Origin: a virus
Taxonomy: Duplodnaviria; Heunggongvirae; Uroviricota; Caudoviricetes
DNA: 27,146 nucleotides
Strand: one strand, 5' to 3'
IMG/VR virus record: IMGVR_UViG_2531839485_000010
The notes beneath the pieces are model-generated. The model was not told the origin of the DNA, searched no databases, and was given only the letters and a program-made list of their open reading frames with translations. Below are positions 24,295 to 24,450 of this stretch, in pieces (position 1 is the first letter of the stretch; the number at the start of each line of letters is the position of its first letter). The translations under genes and the position numbers were made by a program.

Positions 24295-24370
24295 TGGTGC
24301 TGGTTAACGGACTTGAACCGCTACCCATTCGCTTACAAGGCGACTGCTCTACCATTGGAGCTAAACCAGC
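24295..24370 (-). tRNA. tRNA-Thr (anticodon UGU)
   Basis: Hand-folded 76-nt cloverleaf on the minus strand: acceptor GCTGGTT/AACCAGC, D-arm GCTC-CAATGGTA-GAGC, anticodon loop CTTGTAA, T-arm AGCGG-TTCAAGT-CCGTT, discriminator A, encoded CCA. Confidence 0.8.
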
Positions 24371-24375
24371 ATATT

Positions 24376-24450
24376 TGGCGGGACAGCGTGGACTCGAACC
24401 ACGATAAGAAGGTTAACAGCCTTCCGTAATGACCTTTATACGACTGACCC
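24376..24450 (-). tRNA. tRNA-Asn-like (anticodon GUU), slightly aberrant
   Basis: 75 nt, 5 nt upstream of tRNA-Thr: anticodon stem-loop GAAGG-CTGTTAA-CCTTC (same loop as E. coli tRNA-Asn), T-arm CGTGG-TTCGAGT-CCACG, encoded CCA; one T-T mismatch in the acceptor stem and a 3-bp D-stem. Confidence 0.5.

Follow-up and report, generated by a model that had tools for sequence, protein, structure and literature searches.

Do lambdoid phages carry a matched pair of tRNA-Asn and tRNA-Thr genes directed against nucleases? Sequence comparison raises this question for a tandem of tRNA genes in the IMG/VR virus record IMGVR_UViG_2531839485_000010, a stretch of 27,146 nucleotides that was analyzed as a whole (hereafter, the window) and whose coordinates are used throughout. 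The tRNA pair as such is already known: it is routinely annotated, as in phage 21, Sf6, SfI and BTP1, and it appears in E. coli genomes by the hundred. A paper of 2025 describes what a tRNA-Thr identical to that of the window does (PMC12445682). A preliminary description of the locus had left open, however, whether the tRNA-Asn is a tRNA at all.

Two tandem tRNA genes with conserved irregularities

The preliminary description had proposed two tandem tRNA genes, Thr-UGU and Asn-GUU, and had suggested running a tRNA predictor on the minus strand. When the whole window was submitted to ARAGORN, exactly two tRNAs were called, both on the minus strand and at the loci proposed, and Rfam agreed with both calls (Table 1). 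Under model RF00005, the tRNA-Thr scores 61.5 bits (E = 2.9e-11) and the tRNA-Asn 55.3 bits (E = 1.4e-9). As the gathering score is 29, both genes pass the curated covariance-model threshold for bacterial elongator tRNAs, and the gene calls are established. Besides the two tRNAs, no Rfam match was found at E ≤ 1 in the 411-nt region searched, so that the leader and the downstream hairpin have no family. On the transcribed strand, tRNA-Asn precedes tRNA-Thr, the reverse of the order in which they had been listed.

Table 1. Features of the late leader and neighboring genes in the window (minus strand throughout)
Feature	Coordinates	Strand	Basis and remarks
Q antiterminator gene, phage 21 type, 162 aa	24542..25030	-	ORF; TAG stop 24544..24542
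Late promoter pR'	24507..24535	-	OL657228 annotation, 100% identical alignment
pR' -35, TTGACA	24535..24530	-	
Q-binding element (QBE), ATTGAGCA/AATGAGCA	24527..24512	-	Between -35 and -10
pR' annotated -10	24512..24507	-	
Late transcription start	24500	-	Phage 21 annotation, mapped
Sigma-dependent pause element, TAAGCTG	24499..24493	-	At +2..+8; phage 21 annotation, mapped
Intrinsic terminator tR'	24498..24451	-	Annotated in phage 21 and Sf6; fold
tRNA-Asn(GUU)	24376..24450	-	ARAGORN and Rfam; 75 nt, encoded CCA, G73
Inter-tRNA spacer AAUAU, 5 nt	24371..24375	-	Sequence
tRNA-Thr(UGU)	24295..24370	-	ARAGORN and Rfam; 76 nt, encoded CCA, A73
Long hairpin	24287..24238	-	Fold; followed by CUUCUUUUUUCCCC, element to ~24224
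S21 pinholin/antipinholin	24176..23961	-	ORF; phage 21 CPT_21_66/67/68 match covers the lysis cassette
SAR endolysin	23961..23464	-	ORF; lysis cassette matches phage 21 CPT_21_66/67/68

Neither molecule has the complete canonical stems of a tRNA (7-bp acceptor, 4-bp D-stem, 5-bp anticodon stem). In the tRNA-Asn, the T-T acceptor mismatch and the short D-stem previously noticed are real: U4·U69 lies in the acceptor stem, and U13·U22 reduces the D-stem to 3 bp. Its anticodon stem, GAAGG/CCUUC, has the full 5 bp. The tRNA-Thr shows an irregularity that had been overlooked, a G27·A43 mismatch at the top of the anticodon stem, (G)UCGC/GCGA(A). These non-canonical pairs are conserved deviations, and they do not disqualify either molecule as a tRNA.

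The nucleotides that direct aminoacylation are present in both. The identity set of E. coli AsnRS consists of the anticodon G34-U35-U36 and the discriminator G73; the tRNA-Asn of the window has GUU and G73, and the latter is conserved in at least 90% of 42 variants. For E. coli ThrRS the set is G1:C72, C2:G71, G35 and U36, all found in the tRNA-Thr of the window and invariant among 20 variants. Decoding of ACA by a phage tRNA-Thr(UGU) has been demonstrated for tRNA-Thr6.

A terminator separates the late promoter from the tRNAs

Leader features were transferred from the curated annotation of phage 21 (OL657228) through a gap-free alignment and then checked against the window sequence. Their identity is 100%, base for base from Q through tRNA-Asn, and the aligned 3' part of the Q gene is identical to phage 21 Q (CPT_21_63). 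The architecture of the leader is established by this identity. With Q21, pR' and its QBE, the sigma-dependent pause element and tR', the region has every component of a Q-dependent late leader of the phage 21 type, and it is predicted to behave as such. That the tRNAs lie between Q and the lysis genes, a position also seen in other lambdoid phages, had been correctly described.

The tRNAs had also been placed immediately downstream of the late promoter, a statement that needs amendment, as tR' intervenes before tRNA-Asn. The tR' hairpin spans 24498..24460, and the U7AU3 tract that follows reaches 24451 and directly abuts the +1 nucleotide (G1) of tRNA-Asn. Its folding energy is -20.2 kcal/mol (z -6.14), and none of 200 shuffled sequences folded as well. 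In the phage 21 record the terminator is annotated with a citation of Guo, Kainz and Roberts 1991 (PMID 1704887). Because the tRNAs lie behind tR', their transcription needs Q antitermination or leak-through, and the abundant late expression that had been proposed would depend on read-through mediated by Q.

One may argue instead for a dedicated promoter that would express the tRNAs without pR' or Q, and for a role in the lysogen rather than in late infection. Observations in other phages point in that direction: in cultures of a BTP1 lysogen the two tRNA genes were treated separately from the prophage genes listed as highly expressed, and in Sp5 transcription of the tRNAs seems to come from a promoter located between tR' and stx2. 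In the window, however, a scan of this strand from 24540 to 24295 found no sigma-70-like promoter. Nor would one fit between tR' and the tRNAs, as tRNA-Asn begins at +51, right after the U-tract of the terminator. A separate tRNA promoter was discarded on these two grounds. The signal in lysogens can also be explained by leak-through of the constitutive transcript of pR', spontaneous induction and tRNA stability. Hence, we regard expression from a dedicated promoter as very unlikely and favor transcription from pR' under the control of Q.

Both tRNAs are under selection

The irregularities of the tRNA-Asn had suggested a pseudo-tRNA. The gene would then be decaying, or it would be a non-translational tRNA-like element, such as one that is only an RNase P processing signal and splits the terminator leader from the late mRNA. 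The non-canonical U4·U69 and U13·U22 speak in its favor, as do an Rfam score lower than that of the tRNA-Thr and the existence of degenerate derivatives of the Thr gene in the same slot of phage L and JLK-2012. The minimum free energy of the tRNA-Asn fold can be added: z-scores of the single tRNAs (-1.7) are not significantly better than those of shuffled sequences, although such scores are uninformative for single tRNAs, as is usual for this class of molecule.

Variation among relatives speaks against decay. The pattern used to search genome and viral collections constrained only two parts of the tRNA-Asn, its unusual D-arm and its anticodon loop; the invariance of these two elements is thus imposed by the search pattern and carries no evidential weight. 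The search yielded 139 loci, earlier ones included, with 44 distinct Asn sequences, 42 of which were used for covariation analysis. Relevant observations are as follows:

(i). In the 42 variants of the tRNA-Asn, 92.3% of the cells of the cloverleaf are paired, compared with 34-50% in slid controls in which the pairing partners were shifted by 1-3 columns. Changes on both sides were found in 16 of the 21 stem pairs. Not one of 500 shuffles matched the observed percentage of pairing, the number of 16 pairs or the covariation score.

(ii). Position 4:69 is U·U in 24 variants and in three different acceptor contexts (CAG/CUG, CGA/UCG and AGG/CCU), while other clades have U-A, U·G, C-G or G-C. The U4·U69 pair is thus retained even though the pairs next to it differ, with changes on both sides.

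(iii). The tRNA-Asn keeps its GUU anticodon, U33, A37, G18G19, the T-loop UUCGAGU, G53:C61 and G73, and its CCA is encoded.

(iv). Among 20 distinct variants of the tRNA-Thr, 94.8% of the cells are paired, with compensatory changes at 3:70, 5:68, 6:67 and 51:63. Position 27:43 is G·A in all 20 and is never paired.

Compensatory change in both genes indicates that both are under selection as tRNAs and that their mismatches are conserved features; selection for the cloverleaf is established. The pseudo-tRNA interpretation of the tRNA-Asn was rejected on the covariation, to which the AsnRS identity elements and the preserved universal tertiary nucleotides can be added. Activity of the T5 tRNA-Asn against PARIS also argues against it, even if the T5 gene belongs to a different lineage. 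We consider it extremely improbable that the tRNA-Asn is a decaying or merely tRNA-like element, and it is treated below as a genuine tRNA.

Codon usage supports supplementation in part

Two genuine tRNAs in a late transcript invite an explanation based on codon usage, namely that they do nothing other than supplement the host pool for late genes that are richer in AT, and that the oddities of their sequences are neutral. A comparison of late genes with the host had been suggested earlier, and we compared the late genes of the window with a sample of 42 K-12 genes. The outcome was uneven. The ACA codon, read by the tRNA-Thr, is clearly enriched, with 18.3 occurrences per 1000 codons in the late genes and 5.4 in K-12 (3.4-fold, p = 5e-16). 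Asn codons are only 1.33-fold more frequent (50.1 versus 37.6 per 1000). The codon bias is established. The host has four copies of asn genes, a further point against supplementation as the only role of the tRNA-Asn. Furthermore, AGG, AGA and AUA are more enriched than ACA in the late genes, yet the window has no matching phage tRNA for any of them.

Data from other phages fall on both sides. SfI shows the same ACA bias (17.3% versus 7.1%), while the authors of that study called the role of the tRNA-Asn "not clear" (PMC3636060). A preference for AAC is found in coat genes, where it accounts for 24 of 25 Asn codons in phage L (PMC8022706) and for 16 of 19 in the window. In addition, the tRNAs that occupy the same slot in other lambdoid phages (Arg-UCU, Ile-CAU and Gly-UCC) fit the enriched codons AGA, AUA and GGA.

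The neutrality of the sequence oddities is the weak side of this explanation. G27·A43 is invariant in the tRNA-Thr while the acceptor stem drifts with compensation, which is not the behavior of a neutral position, and a published swap experiment ties the anticodon arm to resistance against the nuclease Old (PMC12445682). Codon supplementation as the sole function is, in our opinion, unlikely. Supplementation and nuclease evasion are not mutually exclusive, however, and we favor a reading in which the former accompanies the latter.

Sequence features that suggest nuclease evasion

P2-Old, the effector of P2-lambda interference, kills by excising the anticodon arm of the host tRNA-ThrU(UGU), and phage tRNA-Thr(UGU) genes rescue cells from it, if only partially (PMC12445682). 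The cut site is a paired CNG motif at nt 28-30 and 40-42 (Govande et al. 2025, PMC12445682). The tRNA-Thr of phage 21 (tRNA-Thr21) protects against P2-Old and is resistant in vitro; resistance involves alteration of the CNG motif (C28U/G42A in phage 21) together with a shortened anticodon stem, as altering CNG did not by itself suffice when tried in ThrU, and swapping of anticodon arms indicated that this arm sets resistance (PMC12445682). The same nuclease also cleaves host tRNA-Asn, at a slower rate (PMC12445682).

A second nuclease, AriB of the PARIS system, targets Lys(UUU), Thr(UGU) and Asn(GUU) (Belukhina et al. 2025, PMC12409363). Phage tRNAs that resist AriB are described as a class (Burman 2024; Belukhina et al. 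2025). It cuts between nt 40 and 41 (U36-A-A-U39-C40/A41, where the slash marks the cut), and the determinants of resistance are positions 39 and 41 and U16 in the D-loop (PMC12409363). The Lys, Thr and Asn tRNAs of T5 together neutralize PARIS, the T5 tRNAs being the only ones assayed in that study (PMC12409363). The sites relevant to either nuclease are compared in Table 2.

Table 2. Nuclease-relevant sites in host and window tRNAs (the slash in nt 36-41 marks the AriB cut)
tRNA	nt 36-41	nt 28-30 / 40-42	D-loop
Host thrU	UAAUC/A	CUG / CAG, paired CNG	AGUAGGUA (U16)
Window Thr	UAAGC/G	UCG / CGA, no CNG	CAAUGGUA
Host asnT	UAAUC/C	CGG / CCG, paired CNG	AGUCGGUA (U16)
Window Asn	UAACC/U	AAG / CUU, no CNG	AAAGGUCA (A16)

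The tRNA-Thr of the window is 100% identical to tRNA-Thr21. The anticodon stem of K-12 thrU is ACUGA/UCAGU, 5 bp long and with the paired CNG motifs; that of the window is GUCGC/GCGAA, with G27·A43 unpaired and both motifs replaced. All the features of a rescuing tRNA-Thr resistant to P2-Old are found together in the window gene: the UGU anticodon, the altered CNG and the shortened anticodon stem. The G27·A43 mismatch and the lost CNG are, in fact, the published determinants of the resistance of phage 21 tRNA-Thr to P2-Old, and both protection and in vitro resistance have been demonstrated in the literature for the identical molecule (PMC12445682). A general caution follows: mismatches in phage tRNAs should not be taken for decay, since here they are conserved and one of them is a known resistance determinant.

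At the AriB determinants (39, 41 and U16), both window tRNAs differ from their host counterparts, and neither has the U16 of the host. The Asn and Thr pair thus matches two of the AriB targets, of which there are three, and, for Old, the primary target and one secondary target. A tentative interpretation is that the tRNA-Asn completes a counter-defence cassette of two tRNAs aimed at Toprim tRNases (P2-Old and PARIS AriB). While the anti-nuclease role of the Thr member is in the literature for an identical sequence, that of the Asn member would extend it by sequence comparison, and we hold this extension to be somewhat less probable than the contrary. Were it correct, the loss of CNG, C39/U41 and the unusual D-arm (A16, 3-bp D-stem) could, with the same reserve, be viewed as adaptations for evasion; U4·U69 is perhaps another. 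A cassette placed behind tR' would then time its delivery to late protein synthesis.

Several points weigh against resistance of the tRNA-Asn. Its anticodon stem retains all 5 bp, and for ThrU the altered CNG did not by itself confer resistance to Old. Loss of CNG is not universal in the Asn family: about 21 of the 139 loci, mostly in Klebsiella phages, retain the paired motif, and the idea of a family-wide loss was discarded. As for the trigger of Old, which would be a RecBCD inhibitor, the window does not include the early-left region.

A conserved hairpin downstream of the tRNAs

Between tRNA-Thr and the lysis genes lies a 50-nt hairpin with a folding energy of -25.5 kcal/mol (z -5.07). Its sequence matches lambda 44945-45003 at about 91% identity, and HK629 and Sf6 have it as well. 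Comparison with the lambda homologue revealed no clear compensatory changes, and the structure has no independent support from that side. A T-run, CUUCUUUUUUCC, follows the hairpin in the window and in phage 21 and is absent after it in lambda and Sf6. The hairpin and the T-run are possibly a second terminator, or else a processing or stability element between the tRNAs and the lysis genes. Given the homology with lambda, HK629 and Sf6, the tRNA pair appears to have been inserted after tR', ahead of an ancestral element of the lambdoid leader.

The arrangement in HK629 (L007 400-660) consists of a leader terminator of the phage 21 type, about 190 bp of non-tRNA sequence, a lambda-type hairpin and the S gene. 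It shows that the cargo carried in the slot that separates tR' from the hairpin is variable.

Proposed model

Altogether, we find it highly probable that the locus is a Q-controlled leader that delivers two charged tRNAs, both for late decoding and for replacement of host tRNAs destroyed by nucleases. The proposed sequence of events is as follows:

(i). RNA polymerase would start at pR' (24500) and halt at the sigma-dependent pause element, where Q bound to the QBE would load onto the paused enzyme.

(ii). Without Q, transcription would stop at tR', and the leader RNA released would be about 50 nt long. With Q, the polymerase would read through tR' into tRNA-Asn, tRNA-Thr, the conserved hairpin and the lysis and morphogenesis genes.

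(iii). The tRNAs would be excised from the polycistronic late transcript, with RNase P acting at each 5' end (in the tRNA-Asn, right after the U-tract of the terminator) and endo- or exonucleolytic trimming of the 3' ends to the encoded CCA. We infer this step by analogy with the standard maturation of E. coli tRNAs; the authors of the phage L study considered that excision of the tRNAs from late mRNA was not established (PMC8022706).

(iv). Host AsnRS and ThrRS would charge the tRNAs, and the pair would secure decoding of ACA and AAC/AAU during synthesis of the ACA-rich late proteins. For the Asn member, we infer both aminoacylation and nuclease resistance.

(v). The tRNA-Thr(UGU) would be a nuclease-resistant stand-in for the single-copy host tRNA-ThrU, which P2-Old (and PARIS AriB) destroys. 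The tRNA-Asn would most probably play a parallel role for the host tRNA-Asn, a secondary target of both Toprim nucleases.

(vi). Both tRNAs would also raise the capacity to read codons that the late genes over-use.

Comparison with known systems

The closest known relative of the locus is phage 21 (OL657228). Over 501 nt, from the 3' end of Q to the start of S21, it is 99.6% identical to the window; both tRNAs are 100% identical, and the cassette of pinholin and SAR endolysin is the same. One substitution is found in the 5-nt spacer (T in the window, C in phage 21), and the T-run downstream is shorter by one T in the window. Elsewhere the window is, unlike phage 21, a podovirus late region of the P22/CUS-3 kind. 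Judged from these resemblances, the locus is a late-operon leader of the phage 21 type within a P22/CUS-3-like E. coli podovirus.

Two other features were recorded in the window. A sar antisense RNA at 5440-5507 on the plus strand (RF00262, 81.8 bits) marks a P22-type immI/ant region. In the nin region, an ORF on the minus strand (26024-26581) contains an NPPY motif (IWNNPPYSN) and probably encodes a phage N6-adenine DNA methyltransferase.

Annotations of the same tRNA pair exist for Sf6, SfI, BTP1, Oslo, SPN9CC and many other phages. Of 5426 complete E. coli genomes, 369 contain it, with the two genes labeled tRNA-Thr and tRNA-Asn by PGAP. In Sf6, SfI, BTP1, SPN9CC, HK446 and other P22-like or lambdoid phages, the module is 97-99% identical and lies between Q and the holin gene. 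The segment shared with P22-like phages begins exactly one nucleotide after the transcription start and extends to about 60 nt past tRNA-Thr (24499..24233 in the window). These carriers differ from the window in their QBEs, Q alleles and lysis cassettes; Sf6, for instance, has lambda-type S/R and no T-run after the downstream hairpin.

Across the 139 loci of this Asn family, the tRNA-Asn is always the first gene of the array, and its partners include Thr, Ile-GAU, Gly-UCC, Phe, Arg-UCU and others. In two unrelated types of leader, the terminator run TTTTTTATTT abuts the +1 nucleotide of tRNA-Asn.

Departures from the pair were seen in individual phages. In phage L (MW013502; L004 529-604), the annotation gives tRNA-Leu(TAA) for the gene in the Thr slot, for which ARAGORN makes no call; in this gene a CCUUC/GAAGG stem closes a loop of 4 nt, and a long variable arm is lacking. 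We considered an anticodon switch and judged the gene to be a degenerate derivative of the Thr gene instead. In JLK-2012 (L009 530-605), the tRNA-Thr is a hybrid with a 5' half of the phage 21 type and a 3' half that is nearly host thrU; a change from UCAGU to UCAUC breaks pairs 27:43 and 28:42, and ARAGORN makes no call.

Stx phages 933W, Sp5 and Nil2 also have tRNAs in the late leader, after tR' and before stx2 and the first late genes. Those genes (ileZ-argN-argO) have other anticodons (Ile-CAU, Arg-UCG and Arg-UCU), and a separate promoter has been reported in Sp5. Nil2 (AJ413274; L014 603-771) retains a Q21-type tR' and the first 24 nt of a tRNA-Asn of the window type. An IS-like insertion follows those 24 nt and is in turn followed by ileZ-argN-argO-stx2; the Asn/Thr module has thus been disrupted and replaced in some Stx phages.

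More distant phages offer a final comparison. P1, N4 and phage Cyrano have an Asn(GUU)/Thr(UGU) pair with the same anticodons, adjacent or nearly so, outside any Q-controlled leader, as is also the case in T5. Their tRNA-Asn, like that of T5, belongs to another, canonical lineage (GAUGGUG...) with a 4-bp D-stem and without the 4:69 mismatch, and the tRNA-Thr of P1 keeps the paired CNG motif. In all four phages, nevertheless, the tRNA-Asn has C39 in place of the U39 of the host and the tRNA-Thr has G39, as in the window.
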